Positions 7,370 through 17,081 of a DNA stretch of 20,228 nt are shown one piece after another. Within the stretch, counting starts at the first letter, position 1. Each line of letters opens with the position of its first letter. Made by a program: the position numbers and the translations under genes. The stretch is taken from contig JBBRRY010000046.1 in the NCBI GenBank assembly GCA_038245905.1, forward strand, positions 1-20,228, in the 5' to 3' direction. Below the pieces are notes generated by a model. That model had not been told where the DNA came from and did not search any database. It saw only the letters and a program-made list of their open reading frames with translations. Origin of the DNA: Thermoanaerobaculia bacterium (GTDB lineage: Bacteria > Acidobacteriota > Thermoanaerobaculia > UBA5066).

Positions 7370-8569
7370 TCAGATGACGCCGTTCTCCTTCAGGTTCGCG
7401 AGGTCGGTTCCGGAATATCCGAGCCGGTCGAGGATTTCGGCCGTGTGCTCGCCGAGCCGCGGCGGCGGGGTCTCGATCGCCGCCGGTGTCGAACCGAAGA
7501 GCGCGGGGAGGTTGAAGAGAGGAAGCGGCCCGATGCCCGGCGCGTCGACCGTCTTCAGCGTCCCGCGGTGGACGACCTGCGGCTGGTGGAGCGCCTCGTC
7601 GAGTCCGAGGATCTCGCCCGACGGGACGCCCGTGGCGTTCAAGAGCTCCACCCACTGCTTCGTCGTCTTCCCCACGAGCTTCGCCTCGAGGAGGGGCGTC
7701 AACGCCTTGCGGTTCTTCTTCCTCGAGTCGCGCTCCTGGAACCGCGGGTCGACCTTCAGCCCGGGAACGCCGAGGGCGTCGCAGACGGCCTCCCATTGCT
7801 CCTGCTTGTTCGCCGCGATGTTGACGTAGCCGTCCCGGGTCTTGAAGACGCCGCTCGGTGCGGCCGTGAAGTTGTCGTTCCCCATCAGGACGGGCTGCTG
7901 GCCGCCGATGAGGAGGTTCGCGGCGACCCAGCCCATCAGCGGCATGATCGCGTCGAGGAGCGCGACGTCGACCATCTGCCCCTCGCCGGTCCGCTCGCGG
8001 TGAAAGAGGGCCGTCATGATCGCGAACGCCCCCGTCAATCCGCCGACCGTGTCGCAGAGAGGGAAGCCGCAGCGGAGCGGGTTGAGCCGCTCGTCGCCGT
8101 TGAGGGCCATCGTCCCCGAGAGCCCCTGGATGATCTGGTCGTAGGCCGGCTTGTCGGCGTCGGGCCCGTCCTGGCCGAAGCCCGAGATCGCGCAGTAGAC
8201 GAGGCGCGGATTCACGGCCTTCATCGCGTCCCAACCGAAGCCGAGCCGCTTCATCACGCCGGGGCGGAAGTTCTCGACGACGACGTCGGTGTGGGCGACG
8301 AGCTTCCGGAAAATCTCCTGAGCCTCTGTTTTCTTGAGGTTCAGCGTGATCGACTTCTTGTTCGCGTTCTGAGCGAGGAAGCTCGTCCCCATCAGCTCCC
8401 TGTTCAGCTTCGGGACGTTGCCCAGCTTTCGTGCGAGGTCGCCATCGAGCGGGTTCTCGACCTTGATCACCTCGGCGCCGAGGAGCGAGAGGTGGAGCGT
8501 CGCGAACGGGCCGGAGAGCACGTTCGTCAGGTCGAGGACGCGGATCCCTTCGAGGGCTTTCTTCGTCAC
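7370..8569 (-). CDS. Family III CoA-transferase (CaiB/BaiF)
   Basis: LEGIRVLDLT.VLSGPF, LGAEVIKVE, NANKKSITLNLK, DVVVENFRPG, AISGFGQDGP and PPRLGEHT. GTG 8569 overlaps the upstream stop as GTGA. Confidence 0.93.
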   Translation of the reverse strand: MTKKALEGIRVLDLTNVLSGPFATLHLSLLGAEVIKVENPLDGDLARKLGNVPKLNRELMGTSFLAQNANKKSITLNLKKTEAQEIFRKLVAHTDVVVENFRPGVMKRLGFGWDAMKAVNPRLVYCAISGFGQDGPDADKPAYDQIIQGLSGTMALNGDERLNPLRCGFPLCDTVGGLTGAFAIMTALFHRERTGEGQMVDVALLDAIMPLMGWVAANLLIGGQQPVLMGNDNFTAAPSGVFKTRDGYVNIAANKQEQWEAVCDALGVPGLKVDPRFQERDSRKKNRKALTPLLEAKLVGKTTKQWVELLNATGVPSGEILGLDEALHQPQVVHRGTLKTVDAPGIGPLPLFNLPALFGSTPAAIETPPPRLGEHTAEILDRLGYSGTDLANLKENGVI

Positions 8570-9498
8570 GCGGGCACGTCCACGATCTTCCGCGACGCCG
8601 GGGCCGGCCCGATTCGGTAGACCCGTCCGGGCATCTCGCGCCCGAAGAAGGCCGAGACCGACCGTGCGACCTCGATCAGCGCGCCCAGATCGAGGTCGGT
8701 CCGGAGACCCGACCTCTGCCAGCCGTGGACGAGGTCCTCCGTCGCGACGTTCCCCGCGGCCACCTTCGTGAACGGACAGCCGCCGAGCCCGGCGAACGAC
8801 GACTCGAACGAGACGGCGCCGGAGCGCATCGCCGCCCACACATTTACCATCCCGAGTCCGAACGTGTCGTGGAAGTGGCAGGCGGGCTCGGCGCCGGGGT
8901 CCAGCTCGACGATGGCTCCGAACAGCCTCTCGACCTGCTCCGGATAGGCATGCCCCGCCGTGTCGGCGAGCGAGACTCGCATGAGGCCCGCGCCGAGGTA
9001 CTCCTTGACGATCGCAAGGACGCGCTCTTCGGGCACCGGCCCCTCGAAGCCGCATCCAAACGCGGACTGGACCGAGACCTGAACCGCCCGGCCCGCCTCG
9101 ACCGCCTTCTTCGCGGTCGCGAGGATGCGTCGCGTCGCATCCTCGGTCCCCATTCCGGAGTTTTTCCGGCTGTGGGTGTCGCTCGCCGATACGCCCATGC
9201 AGACGAGAGAGACGCCGCACGCGAGCGCGCGGTCGAGGCCCTTCTCGTTCAGGACGAGTCCGGAGAGGATGCCAAGCCCGGCGTCGGGCCTTTGCGAGAG
9301 CCTTCGGAACAGCTCGTCCGTGTCGGCCATCTGCGGGACCTTTTCCGGATGGACGAAGGAGCCAACCTGTACGACGTCGATGCCCGAGGCGAGGAGATTC
9401 CCGATCCACGCGAGCTTCGTCGCGGTCGGCACGATCTGCTTCTCGACCTGGAGGCCGTCGCGCGGCCCGACTTCGTGGAGGACGAGCTTCCTCATCAC
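8566..9498 (-). CDS. Hydroxymethylglutaryl-CoA lyase family (DRE-TIM metallolyase)
   Basis: EVGPRDGLQ, HFHDTFG (HxH metal site) and GLGGCPF...GNVATEDL. RBS GAGGAG upstream; start is GTG 9498 or ATG 9495. Confidence 0.92.
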   Translation of the reverse strand: MMRKLVLHEVGPRDGLQVEKQIVPTATKLAWIGNLLASGIDVVQVGSFVHPEKVPQMADTDELFRRLSQRPDAGLGILSGLVLNEKGLDRALACGVSLVCMGVSASDTHSRKNSGMGTEDATRRILATAKKAVEAGRAVQVSVQSAFGCGFEGPVPEERVLAIVKEYLGAGLMRVSLADTAGHAYPEQVERLFGAIVELDPGAEPACHFHDTFGLGMVNVWAAMRSGAVSFESSFAGLGGCPFTKVAAGNVATEDLVHGWQRSGLRTDLDLGALIEVARSVSAFFGREMPGRVYRIGPAPASRKIVDVPA

Positions 9499-11364: not shown

Positions 11365-12291
11365 TCACATCTCCCGTTCCATGGAGCCGAGGATGCGCTC
11401 CGTGTCGTGTGCCGTCTGGCGGATGGCTTCGACGCCGTCGAGGAGCTCGTCGAGCTGGCCGGAGAGCTCCTGCGGCGACTGCATGGTGACGATCTGGTCC
11501 GCGATGAGCTGGAAGGAATTCTCGATGAGGTCGAGCTGGCCGCGCGCCACGGTGAGGTACCGGTGAATCTCCTTCATCTTGTCGATCCGCTTCGTGACGA
11601 TGTCGAGGTTCTTCTTCGCGATCTGGGTCTGCTGCGGGTCGGTGTTCGAGCTCTTCACGATGGAGTCGTACTTCCGGCGGTCTCTGTCGAGGGCGCCGTC
11701 GTCGACCGACCCGAGATAGCTCTCGTACCGGGCGCACGTGACGGCCATCTCGACGAAGGCGTCCACGAGGCGGTCGGTCTTCACGAGCTCGTTTCGGAGG
11801 AGGTCTCCCGTGAAGGAGGGGTTCTGGGCCGCGAGGCGCCTGATCTCCTCCTGCCGCGCCACGAGCGCGTCGACGCGGCCTCCGTCGTCATCGCCAACGG
11901 TCTTCAGCCGTTCGGCGCGCTCCTGCGCCTGAAGAGCCTTCTTCAGCTTGTCGAAGCGCGGATCCCAGAGAAGATGCTTGAGCCGCTCGTTCTCGGGCCC
12001 GTGGAGGAGCCAGAGCCCCTCGAAGCCCAGCGCGACGACGGCGAGCACGGGATTCAACGTGAGGCCGGCCGCCGCGAGCGCTCCGAAAAACACGGAGAGG
12101 TTGTAGGGGTTCTTGAACGCCATCTGGAGATAGGGGCGCTTCTCGAACAGCGCACTCGTCGCGAGATTCCGTGCGGCGTCCGAGACGCCGCTCCGCACGT
12201 CGTTCGCCGTGGACGCAGCCGCCGTGGGCGCCGCGGCGGCTGCCTGGCGCGCCGCGGGCAGGGGCGTCTTCGGTTTCTCGAGGGTGCCCAT
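11365..12291 (-). CDS. Membrane-anchored alpha-helical/coiled-coil protein of unknown function
   Basis: Hydrophobic hairpin SVFFGALAAAGLTLNPVLAVVALGFEGLWLL followed by ~200 aa of charged helical sequence. Stop lies 4 nt from the AAA start. Confidence 0.85.
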   Translation of the reverse strand: MGTLEKPKTPLPAARQAAAAAPTAAASTANDVRSGVSDAARNLATSALFEKRPYLQMAFKNPYNLSVFFGALAAAGLTLNPVLAVVALGFEGLWLLHGPENERLKHLLWDPRFDKLKKALQAQERAERLKTVGDDDGGRVDALVARQEEIRRLAAQNPSFTGDLLRNELVKTDRLVDAFVEMAVTCARYESYLGSVDDGALDRDRRKYDSIVKSSNTDPQQTQIAKKNLDIVTKRIDKMKEIHRYLTVARGQLDLIENSFQLIADQIVTMQSPQELSGQLDELLDGVEAIRQTAHDTERILGSMEREM

Positions 12292-12322: not shown

Positions 12323-13240
12323 TCATCCCGAGTACAGGAGATCGAGCAGCTTCTTCTCGACGGCCCGGAACTCGGATGCCGACTTCAGCTCGATGTTGCG
12401 GACCGGGAAGTAAGGCACGTCGACACGGTGGAGCACGCGGGCCGGACGGGACGAAAGCACGTAAACGCTGTCGGCCAGGTAGACGGCCTCCGAAACGTCG
12501 TGCGTGACGAAAAGAATGGTCGGATCCTCGCTCCGCGACACGTCGAGGAGGAGGCCCTGCATTCCCCAGCGGGTCTGCGGGTCGAGCGCCCCGAACGGCT
12601 CGTCCATCAGGATGACCCGCGGCGCGTTGATCAGGGTGCGCGCGATGGCCACCCGTTGCTTCATGCCGCCCGAGAGGTCCTTGGGGTAGCGGTCGGCGAA
12701 ATCGGCGAGGCCCACGGACTCGATGTACTTCTTGGAGCGCTCGTGCCGCTCGGCGGCCGGGACGCCCTGGAGGTTCAAGCCGTACTCCACGTTCTCGCGC
12801 ACGGTGAGCCAGCCGAACGACGTGTAGGCCTGGAAGACCATCCCGCGTTCCTTGCTTACGCCGTCGACGGGCTTTCCGTCCAGGAGGATCTCGCCCTTCG
12901 TCGGCGCGAGGAGGCCGGCCACGGCCTTCAGGATCGTCGACTTTCCGCAACCGGACGGACCCAGGAAGACGACGACCTCGCCGGTGCCGGGCTTATCCTC
13001 GACGTCGAACGAGACGTCGCGAACAGCCTCGGTGCCGAGTCCCTTCCGATTCAGATACGTGATCGAGAGATTCTTCACGCGGAGCTTGACGGTCTCGGCC
13101 GTCGGCTCGTGCTTGTAGGAACCCTTGCGCTTCGCTCCGTCCGGGCCGAGGTCGACCGCGAAGGTGCCGGGCTCGCCCGTCTGCGGCGCTGCCTTCGGCG
13201 CCGTGTCCTTGTCGCGGACGGCGTCCTTCTCGCCGTTCAC
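12323..13240 (-). CDS. ABC transporter ATP-binding protein (TauB/SsuB/NrtD type)
   Basis: GPSGCGKS, LSGGMKQR, ILMDEPFGALD and VTHD. GTG 13240 overlaps the permease stop as GTGA. Confidence 0.93.
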   Translation of the reverse strand: MNGEKDAVRDKDTAPKAAPQTGEPGTFAVDLGPDGAKRKGSYKHEPTAETVKLRVKNLSITYLNRKGLGTEAVRDVSFDVEDKPGTGEVVVFLGPSGCGKSTILKAVAGLLAPTKGEILLDGKPVDGVSKERGMVFQAYTSFGWLTVRENVEYGLNLQGVPAAERHERSKKYIESVGLADFADRYPKDLSGGMKQRVAIARTLINAPRVILMDEPFGALDPQTRWGMQGLLLDVSRSEDPTILFVTHDVSEAVYLADSVYVLSSRPARVLHRVDVPYFPVRNIELKSASEFRAVEKKLLDLLYSG

Positions 13241-14034
13241 GACTGGGCCTCTCTCCAGCGGAAGAGGATGGCCGAGACGGTCCGGATGATGAAGTCGGTG
13301 AAAAGGCCGATGCCGCCGATGACGAGGAGGCCCGCGAACGACCACGACGCCTTCTGATGCGTGCGCGCGAGCTCGACCATGTACCCGAGCCCGTGCTCGG
13401 GATTCACGGCCTCGGCCAGGATGACGTACGTCCACGAGATCGCGTTCATCACGCGAAACGAGTCGAAGATCTCCGGAAGCGCTGCGGGCAGGAGAACCGT
13501 TCGGAGGACCTGGCCGCGGGAAGCGCCCAGCGTGAGCGCCGTCTGGACCAGCTCCTCGGGCACCGCGCGGATCGCCGTCACGACGACGGGCAGGAGGTAG
13601 ACGAAGACGCCGAGGAAGAGGAACGCGATCTTCTGCTTCTCGTAGATGCCGAACCACAGGATCAGGAGCGGGATGAACGCCGAGATGGGCATGTAGCGGA
13701 GAGGCGCCATGATCGGCTCGAACAGCCGGTTCACGGGCTCGAATGCGCCCATCAGGATGCCGAGCGGGAGGGCGATGGCCGAGGCGAGAAGGAACGCGGT
13801 CGCGATGCGGCGCGTGGACACGAGGATCGCGCTCGTCAGGTCGTACTGGAGGAAGAGCTGGAGCGTTCCGCGGATGACCTCGGTCGGCGAGGGCAGGAAG
13901 TCGGCCGGGGCGAACCCTCCGTAGCTGATGACGCACCACGCGCCCAGGACCGCCGCCGGCGCGACGAATCCGAGAGCCACGGCCATCGCCCGGGGCAGCG
14001 GGGCCCGCAGTGCGAAAAGATCGCTGCGCTTCAC
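13237..14034 (-). CDS. ABC transporter permease (TauC/SsuC type)
   Basis: FLPSPTEV, PLRYMPISAFIPLLILWFGI, EAA loop ELVQTALTLGAS, SWTYVILAE and GLGY. GTG 14034 overlaps the upstream stop. Confidence 0.92.
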   Translation of the reverse strand: MKRSDLFALRAPLPRAMAVALGFVAPAAVLGAWCVISYGGFAPADFLPSPTEVIRGTLQLFLQYDLTSAILVSTRRIATAFLLASAIALPLGILMGAFEPVNRLFEPIMAPLRYMPISAFIPLLILWFGIYEKQKIAFLFLGVFVYLLPVVVTAIRAVPEELVQTALTLGASRGQVLRTVLLPAALPEIFDSFRVMNAISWTYVILAEAVNPEHGLGYMVELARTHQKASWSFAGLLVIGGIGLFTDFIIRTVSAILFRWREAQS

Positions 14035-15680
14035 TCGGTCGCGAGGACGACCTTGATGTCGGTGCGGCGGTTGAGCTGCCTTCCCGTCTCGGTCGTGTTC
14101 GGGGCCACCGGATTCGTCGAGCCCTTGCCGATCGTCTGGAACCGGGCGGGAAGGATGTTGGGGAAATTCTTGAGCACGTATGTCTTCACGGCCAGCGCCC
14201 GCCGCTCGGAAAGCGTCATGTTCGCGCTGGAGCCGCCGGTGGCGTCCGTGTTGCCTTCGACGCGGAGGTAGGTGTTTCCGAAGGAAGTCATCGTCTCGCC
14301 GAGCGCATCGAGAACGAAGTACGAGCCCGCCATGATGACGTCGGACCCCGGCGTGAAGTGGATCTGGATCTGCTTGTTGATGATGGCGCGGTCGTTGGCC
14401 GAAGGGGCCTTCGACGCGATCCGGGGCTCCTCGACCTTCTGCTCCTGGTAATTCGCCGCGAGAGCAGAGAGGAAGCGCGTGTCGACCCAGTCCTTCGCGT
14501 CGACGGCCTTCGTGACGAGGCCCTTCTTGCGCCAGATCACGAACGCGGTGTCGAAGAGCGTCTCGTAGTGCGCCTTGCCGCCCGAGATCCCGTAGAACTG
14601 CGCGTTGTCGGCGTAGGGCGTGAGCTTGAGGCCCGCGAGCATTCCGGAGACGGTGTCGGTGTCCAGCTTCAGGGCCTTCGCGACGAGGGCGTAGGCCGCG
14701 TTCGGGTCGGCCTTGATCATGTCGATCCCGTCGAACCAGCCATGGATGAAGTCGCGGACGGTGTCGGGCGCCCGGTCGATGAGGTCCTGCCGCGCGCACA
14801 GCGTGTCGGCGATGATGTTCGTGGCCGCGGTCGTGGAGACGAGGACGTGCGCCTCGCTCTCGCGCGCGGTGACGGCCGCCGAGAGGTCCGGCTCCCAGGT
14901 GACGGCCGCGTCCACCTGCTTGGCCTTGAACATCGCGGCGGCGGCGGGCGCGTCCTGCGTGAAGATGATGTTCTTCTCCACCGCGGCGCGCTCGTCGGGC
15001 GTGAGGCCCGACTGCGACAACAGGAAAAGCAGCAGGAAATGCGAGGGCGTGAACTGCGTACAGGAGATCTTGTGGCCCTTGAGGTCTTCGACGGACTTGA
15101 TCGTCGAGAGCGACACGATGCCATCTCCGCCGCGGGACCAGTCCTGCATGATTACCGACTTGGCCTTCGCGTTCTGCTCGGCCAGGATCGAGGCCTCGCG
15201 CGCCCAGTTGTCGACGGTATTCCACATGATGTCGACGTCGCCTTTGCGAAACGCCGCGAGCTTGGCCGCCGGGTCTTCCAGGAGCACGAACTTCACGTTC
15301 AGGTTGTAGCGCTGCTTGTAGCGGCCCGAGGCCGCCGACTCCATGCCGCCGTTCGCCACGATGCCGGGCGCGTGGCCCGCCCACGTGTTGATAGCGACGA
15401 CCAGAGGCCGGTTGAGCTTGCCGCCGGCGGTGAGCGCCACACCGGAAACGCCGGCCGCGCCCTTCCCGCGCTCGGGGTCGGGCGGTGCGTTCTTGAGCGC
15501 GTCGAAGTCGGTGCCCGAGGCCGCGCCCGAGCCTTGGGCCGCGGCCGTGGTGCCAGGCGCGGGCTTGTCGGCGCCGGCCCATTTCTTGATGTCGATGCTC
15601 TTGTAGTGCCACAGCGCGTAGCCGATGACACCGAGGATGACGACGGTGATGAAGAACTTCGCGAACGCAGTGAGTTTCAT
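14031..15680 (-). CDS. Membrane-anchored NMT1/THI5-like solute-binding protein fused to a C-terminal OmpA-like peptidoglycan-binding domain
   Basis: N-terminal TM helix with no lipobox Cys, Ala/Gly/Pro linker, class II SBP motifs (DWSRGGDGIV, IKSVEDLKGHKI, VDAAVTWEP), and OmpA_C motifs (VEGNTDATG..N..LSERRA; G.G..NPVAPN.T..GRQLNRR). RBS GAGGAG. Confidence 0.9.
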   Translation of the reverse strand: MKLTAFAKFFITVVILGVIGYALWHYKSIDIKKWAGADKPAPGTTAAAQGSGAASGTDFDALKNAPPDPERGKGAAGVSGVALTAGGKLNRPLVVAINTWAGHAPGIVANGGMESAASGRYKQRYNLNVKFVLLEDPAAKLAAFRKGDVDIMWNTVDNWAREASILAEQNAKAKSVIMQDWSRGGDGIVSLSTIKSVEDLKGHKISCTQFTPSHFLLLFLLSQSGLTPDERAAVEKNIIFTQDAPAAAAMFKAKQVDAAVTWEPDLSAAVTARESEAHVLVSTTAATNIIADTLCARQDLIDRAPDTVRDFIHGWFDGIDMIKADPNAAYALVAKALKLDTDTVSGMLAGLKLTPYADNAQFYGISGGKAHYETLFDTAFVIWRKKGLVTKAVDAKDWVDTRFLSALAANYQEQKVEEPRIASKAPSANDRAIINKQIQIHFTPGSDVIMAGSYFVLDALGETMTSFGNTYLRVEGNTDATGGSSANMTLSERRALAVKTYVLKNFPNILPARFQTIGKGSTNPVAPNTTETGRQLNRRTDIKVVLATE

Positions 15681-15698: not shown

Positions 15699-16406
15699 CT
15701 ACATCGTCTTCTGCGCGGCCTGCTGGGCGGCGCGTTTGGCCTTCATCTCGGCGAGCTGCTGTTTGGCCTGGACGTCTCCCGCCTGACTCTTCAAGGCGGC
15801 GAGACGCGTGTCGAGCGAAGATTCGGACAGCTCCTTGCCCAGGTTCGCGGCCGCGATCGTGTTCTTGATGTGCTCGCGCACGTTATCGAGCGCCTTGACC
15901 TCCGCGTCGACCGAGAGCCCGTCGAGCTGCTCCTGGATCTTGAGGCGCGCCTGTGCGCTCTGCATGCGGGCCAGCATCACGTCGCGCTCGCCCTTCAGCT
16001 TCTTGATCTCACCCTGCACGGAGATGAGAGACGTCTTGGCGCTGTCGGCGTCCTTGCTCGCGGTGTCCATGTCGGTCCGGAGCTCGGACACCTCGGTCCC
16101 AAGCTCGTTCTTCCGCTGGATGAGAACGACGGCGAGGTCGTCCTGGTTCGTCTCGACGGCGACGTTCAGCTCGGCCTCGGTCTGGGTGAGCTCCTTGCTG
16201 GCCTTCTTCAGCCGTTCGTCGATGTCTTCGCGGCGCCGGATGATGGCCGCCGTTGCCTGCTTGAGCTTGCTGTACTTTTCGATCATCGAGTTGATCGCGT
16301 TCTCGTAGGCGATCTCGGGGTGCTCCTTCTCGACGTCGGAGATCCAGATGGACAGGAACCCGCGCCAGAGATTGGCCAGCCTCGTGAAGATCCCGATGTC
16401 CGCCAT
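15699..16406 (-). CDS. PspA/IM30 (Vipp1) family protein, ESCRT-III superfamily
   Basis: N-terminal amphipathic helix [19 protein letters not shown] then E.PE, long coiled-coil hairpin, C-terminal LDTRLAALK, 235 aa. RBS GGAGG. Confidence 0.88.
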
Positions 16407-16439: not shown

Positions 16440-17081
16440 TCAGCGGGCGGGCGGGGCGGGCTCGACGAGCTTCGGCGACGCGCGCACGACGCGCGCCACC
16501 GTCTCCTGCCCGAAGAACTCCAGCACGTGCTGGATCTCGAGCTTCCTGTCGTTGCACGCCTTGACGACCGCTTGCTGTTCCGCCACGCGGTCTTCCATGA
16601 CCGCGTTGATGCGCTTGATCTCGTTCTCGAAGTCCCCGATGCGCTTCTGCGACTCTTCGAGGACCTTCTGGGTGTCGCCGGATCCAGCGCGAATGTAGCT
16701 CTCGAGCGCCTGGATCTCCTGGACGGCCCCCTCGATGATCTTGTCGATCGGAACGCCGAAGGCCTTGAGCGATGCCTCGACGATCTGCTTCTTAACGGCC
16801 GGCGGTGCGTCGGCGGGAAGCGCGGAGAGAAGGTCCGCCGCCTTGACGACGCGCTGCTGCTCCTCGGAGTCCATGCCCGCCGCCTCGTAAACGGCCCCGA
16901 AATCCACTTTCCCGCCCGGGGCGGCGGGGATGTCCTTCACGAAAGCGACGGGAGGCGGCTCGCTGGCGGCGGCCGCGATGGCGGCCGCGTCGTCGGACGG
17001 GGCGGCCGTGCCCGGCGCGGACTCGTCCGTGACGACGAACCACCCCAGGACGGTCGATCCCCAGTTCTTCTTGTCGGTCAT
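16440..17081 (-). CDS. Alpha-helical protein of unknown function, first gene of the PspA operon
   Basis: Short N-terminal WGSTVLGWFV segment, Pro/Ala linker, helical domain and C-terminal coiled coil. GC-rich third positions; 33 nt from pspA. Confidence 0.82.
   Translation of the reverse strand: MTDKKNWGSTVLGWFVVTDESAPGTAAPSDDAAAIAAAASEPPPVAFVKDIPAAPGGKVDFGAVYEAAGMDSEEQQRVVKAADLLSALPADAPPAVKKQIVEASLKAFGVPIDKIIEGAVQEIQALESYIRAGSGDTQKVLEESQKRIGDFENEIKRINAVMEDRVAEQQAVVKACNDRKLEIQHVLEFFGQETVARVVRASPKLVEPAPPAR

Follow-up and report, generated by a model that had tools for sequence, protein, structure and literature searches.

How the polymers of the bacterial ESCRT-III proteins PspA and Vipp1 are placed on the membrane, and how they are dismantled again, is an open question. 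In archaea and eukaryotes the task of disassembly is performed by Vps4. According to the consulted part of a 2025 review (PMC7619361), bacteria seem to lack an ATPase of the Vps4 type. The question is raised directly by a seven-gene operon in the genome of a Thermoanaerobaculia bacterium (assembly GCA_038245905.1, contig JBBRRY010000046.1, positions 1 to 20,228 of the forward strand; this whole stretch of 20,228 nucleotides (nt) is referred to as the window). In this operon PspA is encoded together with an unfoldase-type AAA+ ATPase and a membrane-hairpin helical protein of 308 amino acids (aa), which makes the operon an immediate candidate for the machinery that is lacking. The hairpin protein, which is the subject of the present study, is the operon component most likely to confer spatial control; as a second ESCRT-III subunit it would imply a co-polymer model, as a separate adaptor a receptor model. 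The tests described here lean to a separate adaptor or receptor, against the only published annotation.

The operon class as such has been known since 2024. The consulted part of Ravi et al. 2024 (mSystems 9:e00847-23) lists the same gene order in PspA / PBPB-OmpA / ABC / tandem-AAA+ operons, with OGG56892.1 as the example neighbourhood, and calls the component of interest “TM + divergent Snf7” (‘SIG+TM+Snf7’). The operon in the window corresponds to a row of their Table S3, which gives X(s), PspA, a solute-binding protein with OmpA (SBP+OmpA), permease, ABC ATPase, a helical protein with two hydrophobic segments, and inactive-AAA+AAA. Our protein occupies the same operon position and likewise carries its helical domain behind two hydrophobic segments, a match made by gene order and not by comparison with OGG56892.1 itself, while the Snf7 assignment is unsupported for it by our data. 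The class was described there in silico, without experiment, as far as the consulted text goes; our search of the full-text literature found no bench study of the operon, and it is not mentioned in the consulted part of Popp et al. 2022 (PMC9239133). New in the current study are the negative ESCRT-III tests and a lead towards PspM, the membrane partner of mycobacterial PspA.

A conserved membrane-hairpin protein of an unnamed family

At E <= 0.001, 2242 database proteins (of 8000 candidates scored) match the hairpin protein, and 491 representatives of clusters formed at 50% identity also match it, so that a chance open reading frame (ORF) can be ruled out. The GC content by codon position, with 0.91 at third positions (GC3) against 0.41 at second positions (GC2), resembles that of the neighbouring genes. 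Precomputed Pfam domains are absent from all of the 120 best matches, and where a source gives a name it is ‘hypothetical protein’. Searches of Pfam and NCBIfam gave chance-level matches only (Spectrin_Anc-1, 0.14; RepC, 0.022), those of PADLOC and PHROGs gave none, and a profile search of PDB sequences at E <= 10 retrieved nothing relevant and no ESCRT-III entry. The gene is thus a real and conserved one that belongs to an unnamed family, of which a distant member was located in a metagenome-assembled genome (MAG) of the Planctomycetota.

A structural model was computed with AlphaFold2 from a family alignment of 61 sequences, giving a mean predicted local distance difference test (pLDDT) value of 86.3 and a predicted template modelling (pTM) score of 0.74. 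The preliminary description of this DNA had proposed a transmembrane hairpin followed by long heptad helices, and on this point hydropathy, model and periodicity agree. Kyte-Doolittle windows above 1.2 cover residues 64 to 100, and the model places two 17-residue helices (62–78 and 81–97) in this region, joined by an N-P turn. The span from residue 60 to 100 (41 residues) has an identical length in 55 of the 61 family members, and N64, E91 and W94 within the hairpin are conserved in at least 90% of them. Upstream of it the length varies across the family, with 0–80 aa (median 11) preceding Y54. Several Lys and Arg residues are found on either side of the hairpin, and its turn is without a loop; from this, both the N-terminus and the helical domain are predicted to be cytoplasmic. 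Hairpin arms this short could also adopt a re-entrant form.

Six helices follow the hairpin in the model (102–129, 134–156, 163–195, 198–214, 219–269 and 273–307), which form an antiparallel bundle with helix lengths of 28, 23, 33+17, 51 and 35 residues. The three long C-terminal helices show a hydrophobic period of 3.45–3.55 residues, and the observed periodicity power was reached by fractions of 0.031, 0.008 and 0.000 of 1000 shuffles, respectively. The best structural matches of the bundle are generic bundles of 3–4 helices, and BAR, F-BAR and I-BAR domains, which are long three- or four-helix bundles, provide a comparison class. The acidic and amphipathic C-terminus that had been noted in the preliminary description is acidic indeed: the motif LSGQLDELLDGVEAI corresponds to residues 276–290 (nt 11422–11466), falls within the most conserved stretch of the family, and lies in a segment (residues 271–300) with a net charge of -5. 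It is not, however, the extreme end of the protein, as a further 18 residues lie beyond it, nor does the model show a free tail, since the motif is packed into the bundle with pLDDT values above 90.

Comparison with ESCRT-III proteins and with PspM

The likeness to ESCRT-III proteins (Snf7/CHMP, PspA, Vipp1) is one of general architecture, as the hairpin protein is all-helical over about 200 residues, contains a long helical hairpin, has a membrane site and is encoded next to an AAA+ gene. A divergent ESCRT-III subunit was accordingly one of the two possibilities offered in the preliminary description, but none of the comparisons made here supported it. No match to Snf7 (PF03357) or PspA_IM30 (PF04012) was found for the hairpin protein at E <= 0.5, and both are absent among the 25 families listed of the 106 that match the 61 family members at E <= 1. 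A six-frame scan of five carrier genomes with PF03357 at E <= 10 returned nothing at the loci of the hairpin protein, with a model that is itself weak on prokaryotes (its cut-off was passed in 0 of 14 control genomes). When the family profile was aligned by hhalign to 14 PspA proteins from these operons, the probability was 3.15%. The Foldseek comparison that had been suggested as a check gave 0 matches at E <= 0.001, whereas the model of the operon PspA, although of lower confidence, gave 13 matches at the same threshold, all to Vipp1 or PspA.

The predicted order of the helices differs as well, although the fold searches were not decisive. The PspA model has helices at residues 5–28, 30–85, 89–162, 171–195 and 198–234, in the pattern alpha0, alpha1, alpha2/3, alpha4 and alpha5, with lengths of 24, 56, 74, 25 and 37 residues. 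In the hairpin protein the modelled lengths are 23, 52, 51 and 35, in the order short, long, long, medium behind the transmembrane hairpin, so that a 23-residue helix precedes the 52/51-residue helical hairpin (163–214 and 219–269) and a single 35-residue helix follows it. Given the presence of this helical hairpin, a very remote relationship is conceivable. Where ESCRT-III proteins have an amphipathic alpha0, the hairpin protein has a membrane hairpin. The comparison with the pairing of ESCRT-III and Vps4 is no closer: the active domain of the AAA+ protein has Cdc48/p97/VAT D2 as its closest solved relatives (3e-42) and not Vps4, no MIT domain match was found in the AAA+ protein with Pfam, and the acidic motif is predicted to be part of the bundle, unlike a MIM-like free tail. 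We have therefore not filed the protein as an ESCRT-III homologue, and the published Snf7 label is not borne out by the tests made here.

A different lead came from the feature space of a protein language model, in which the nearest Pfam-bearing clusters carry Rv2743c (PspM, PF25587). The score against the PspM clusters was 0.85 for the whole protein (178 of 256 features shared) and 0.83 for residues 100–308 alone (163 features shared). There is also a likeness in general organisation, as PspM too has two membrane helices, a length of about 260–300 aa and a gene adjoining pspA. The hidden Markov model (HMM) of PF25587, however, does not recognise the hairpin protein, and it found nothing at the loci concerned, neither in five genomes at E <= 10 nor in 201 genomes at E <= 0.001. 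The relationship to PspM is thus unconfirmed by HMMs and is a lead only. No PspM homologues occur outside Actinobacteria according to the consulted part of Ravi et al. 2024. That the family represents a widespread non-actinobacterial counterpart of PspM/Rv2743c, be it a distant homologue or a convergent twin, which would act as a membrane receptor devoted to PspA and as a hub passing PspA assemblies to a Cdc48-like unfoldase, is in our estimation rather improbable. If true, many bacteria would cycle an ESCRT-III-type protein through ATP-driven assembly and disassembly by means of a membrane-embedded adaptor that is not itself ESCRT-III.

Small membrane receptors that position or control PspA or its relative LiaH are well established, examples being PspB and PspC of E. 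coli and LiaI of B. subtilis. The hairpin protein resembles them in its proposed role as a membrane partner of PspA, but its cytoplasmic domain is much larger, it is linked to an unfoldase-type ATPase, and it has no sequence match to them (none at E <= 0.5 with the models of PspB and PspC).

Genomic linkage and a proposed role

The hairpin protein is tightly linked to PspA, AAA+ and ABC genes, both in gene position and in phyletic distribution. Co-occurrence was analyzed in one fixed sample of 201 Acidobacteriota genomes, which were searched with the profile of the hairpin protein, with PF04012 and with a profile of the AAA+ N-terminal domain, and matches were obtained in 40, 61 and 40 genomes, respectively. 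PspA is present in 38 of the 40 genomes that have the hairpin protein vs 23 of the 161 that do not, and the AAA+ N-domain family in 30 of 40 vs 10 of 161, counts which overstate the support, as the genomes are related and not independent, and which show linkage but not its strength. A PspA gene lies within 5 kb of a copy of the hairpin protein gene in 31 of the 40 genomes, at less than 1 kb in 15 and at 3.5–3.8 kb in 16, the latter spacing being that of the fetched loci which have ABC genes in between. The AAA+ gene lies within 2 kb in 20 of the 40.

Two sets of loci extend this picture. Among close relatives (80 loci, almost all from Acidobacteriota MAGs, found with 16 closer sequences; 75 had room for a neighbour) the AAA+ gene is directly downstream in 73 of 75 and the ABC ATPase gene directly upstream in 65 of 75. 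A more diverse set consists of 20 fetched loci plus the window. Of these 21 loci, 14 have PspA in the operon, 13 have ABC genes and 12 have the AAA+ protein, which never occurs there without PspA. The full gene set is found in the window and eight further loci, PspA and the AAA+ protein accompany the hairpin protein in L034, L036 and L042, and PspA is present with neither AAA+ nor ABC genes in L035 and L038. In L037, L041 and L044 it is ABC genes and a protein resembling X, the product of the first operon gene, that are found instead. As the partner combinations vary across the 21 loci, the hairpin protein is their common element. Within the genus of the window, the operon seems to be accessory, since the two other genomes in the sample (G095 and G154, each about 99% complete) have no match to the hairpin protein, PspA or the AAA+ N-domain.

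Some genomes of the sample deviate in gene arrangement. At G083:C4:79052-85161 a PspA match and the AAA+ N-domain match both lie on the strand opposite to the hairpin protein gene, at distances from it of 295 nt and 3.6 kb, respectively. In G010, G029, G045, G057 and G108 the genes for the hairpin protein and the AAA+ protein are on different contigs, as is PspA where found (there is no PspA match in G010). A mirror-tree comparison, in which the pairwise identities of the hairpin protein, PspA and the AAA+ protein correlated with r = 0.92-0.96 (9 loci), was discarded as evidence, as shared phylogeny alone yields the same result.

The proposal to which we give about an even chance is that the hairpin protein is a membrane platform at which PspA docks, with the ATPase held close by. 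The hairpin would hold the bundle of about 200 residues against the cytoplasmic face of the inner membrane, and the protein would mark a membrane site at which the operon PspA docks or begins to assemble. This site may lie beside the co-encoded, wall-tethered ABC importer, and since such an importer is co-encoded, the site or its trigger might be tied to the transporter. The last two helices could bind PspA, the AAA+ protein or both through their acidic, conserved face. The Cdc48-like AAA+ protein would thereby be kept near PspA, where it could use ATP to remodel or remove PspA assemblies. The protein would then be a functional analogue of the PspA membrane receptors PspB/C, LiaI or PspM, with an additional role as an adaptor of the ATPase. 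An adaptor or membrane recruiter had been the other possibility in the preliminary description, and it agrees with the positions of the PspA and AAA+ genes given above; on its physical side, a complex prediction of PspA with residues 100–308 gave a score of 0.00 (mark 0.32; controls were not folded), which speaks neither for nor against binding.

Several observations count against this proposal. Physical contacts, sequence of events and hairpin topology are all inferred by us, and no contact was demonstrated by any of the tools; a full crossing of the membrane is not certain for a hairpin with arms of only 17 residues. Nine of the 40 genomes gave no PspA match within 5 kb of the hairpin protein, and 10 of the 40, all of one family, have no AAA+ N-domain match, so the link to the ATPase is not universal. 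The relatedness of the sampled genomes, mentioned above, weighs in the same direction. Among the 21 diverse loci, three contain none of the three partner gene sets, and four (L037, L041, L044 and L050) have ABC genes and the hairpin protein without PspA or AAA+; as judged from these, a transporter-linked role fits as well.

Such a role is the basis of one of three other explanations, in which the hairpin protein serves the NitT/TauT-type ABC importer that has the wall-tethered binding protein, as a membrane subunit with an accessory or regulatory function, and PspA and the AAA+ protein are add-ons of particular lineages. The gene directly follows that of the ABC ATPase, at a distance of 31 nt from its stop codon in the window and likewise as the immediate neighbour in 65 of the 75 loci of close relatives, ABC genes are part of the operon in 13 of the 21 diverse loci, in the four loci just named they are present without PspA and AAA+, and a 908-aa database protein even joins ABC_tran to a 61%-identical hairpin protein. 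That fused form, however, is a single-sequence cluster and may represent neighbours merged by a frameshift, PspA directly adjoins the hairpin protein without any ABC genes in five loci (L034, L035, L036, L038 and L042), and it is found at less than 1 kb in 15 of the 40 genomes, so we consider a transporter subunit unlikely, if worth bearing in mind. We would place somewhat lower still the view that the protein is a true but highly diverged, Snf7-like ESCRT-III subunit, in line with the annotation of Ravi et al. 2024. In this view the hairpin anchor would replace the amphipathic alpha0, and the protein would act as a nucleator or form a joint polymer with PspA, to be disassembled by the AAA+ protein. 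The heptad-rich, all-helical domain of about 200 residues with its 52/51-residue hairpin is of the kind to be expected, as is the genomic linkage to PspA and an AAA+ protein. Against it stand the missing sequence matches for the protein itself and among the families listed for its 61 relatives, the null PF03357 scan (made with a weak model), the low hhalign probability, the lack of any ESCRT-III entry in the PDB profile search, the failure of the Foldseek search where the less confident PspA model succeeded, and a helix order unlike that of PspA; in addition, no evidence for the Snf7 call was found in the consulted part of the text of Ravi et al. 2024. We regard this explanation as improbable.

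A sensor or signal transducer of the PspB/C type, with a hairpin that senses the state of the membrane and a bundle that holds PspA or the AAA+ protein inactive until stress occurs, is to our mind very improbable. Lipid packing could well be sensed by a short hairpin that has conserved polar residues (N64 and E91) close to the interface, and the genome has a single copy of the hairpin protein, with its only PspA match in the same operon. But the operon shows no regulator gene of either the PspF-like or the two-component type, and there is no match to PspB or PspC, while none of the present results separates such a sensor from the membrane platform that we favour.

The operon in the window and its other products

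All seven genes are on the reverse strand, in the order X, PspA, solute-binding protein with OmpA domain, permease, ABC ATPase, hairpin protein, tandem AAA+ protein (Table 1). As had been stated in the preliminary description, only 4 nt separate the stop codon of the hairpin protein gene from the AAA+ start, the sequence being TGA, ‘cccc’ and the start codon ATG, and a GGGAG is located within the last codons of the former, ahead of this ATG.

Table 1. Genes of the operon and segments of the hairpin protein, with coordinates in the window.
Feature	Coordinates	Strand	Basis
X, conserved partner of 213 aa, no known family	16440..17081	-	Library scans, fetched loci
PspA/IM30	15699..16406	-	PF04012 at 8.5e-20; model matches Vipp1/PspA structures
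NMT1/SsuA-like solute-binding domain fused to OmpA peptidoglycan-binding domain	14031..15680	-	Pfam/NCBIfam
ABC permease (BPD_transp_1)	13237..14034	-	GTG start at 14034, 4-nt overlap with stop of binding-protein gene
ABC transporter ATPase	12323..13240	-	Likely GTG start at 13240, 4-nt overlap with permease stop
Hairpin protein (P0001), 308 aa	11365..12291	-	ORF with ATG start, homologues, AlphaFold2 model, codon GC
Residues 1–45, Ala/Pro-rich N-terminal tail	12157..12291	-	pLDDT 46–61, low alignment occupancy
Residues 62–97, 36-residue hydrophobic helical hairpin	12001..12108	-	Hydropathy, AlphaFold2, conservation
Residues 102–307, antiparallel helical bundle, predicted cytoplasmic	11371..11988	-	pLDDT mostly > 90, heptad periodicity
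Residues 246–292, most conserved stretch of the family, includes acidic motif	11416..11556	-	Family alignment
Two-domain AAA+ ATPase (P0002), 615 aa	9513..11360	-	ATG 4 nt after stop of hairpin protein gene

The AAA+ sequence carries GPMGTGKT, IIDEGD and KWVG, which we take to be Walker A, Walker B and the pore loop, respectively. Its N-terminal part of about 300 aa has no Pfam match but nonetheless defines a family, the one that was found in 40 of the 201 genomes. The AAA+ gene that adjoins the hairpin protein at G040:C83:61766-62617 has an in-frame TAA and may be a pseudogene.

In X, a short hydrophobic motif at the N-terminus is connected by a Pro/Ala-rich linker to a helical domain at the C-terminus, which is conserved; the protein belongs to no known family. 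Its homologues are found either upstream of PspA (L032, L033 and L034) or directly downstream of the hairpin protein (L037, L041 and L044), the latter three loci being without PspA and AAA+.

A search for the sigma-54 promoter pattern gave 4 matches vs 3.7 expected, none of them upstream of the operon, a sigma-70 scan gave 0 sites, and a terminator scan gave 2 sites vs 6.1 expected. Among 22 sequencing runs, none was listed as holding RNA. Past the operon, an HMGL-like gene starts 14 nt beyond the AAA+ stop codon and is followed by a gene for a family III CoA-transferase (7370–9498, reverse strand). An HMGL-like gene is also found near the module in locus L034, which may be a coincidence.

Seven longer representatives of clusters of the hairpin protein family contain no informative extra domain. 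The longer forms of the protein comprise three proteins, each a single-sequence cluster: the 908-aa protein mentioned above (P0274), a 723-aa protein in which the C-terminal part of the hairpin protein is joined to an AAA domain (P0275), and a 551-aa form. The fused forms are probably merged neighbouring genes, possibly arising by frameshift, rather than rare fusions.
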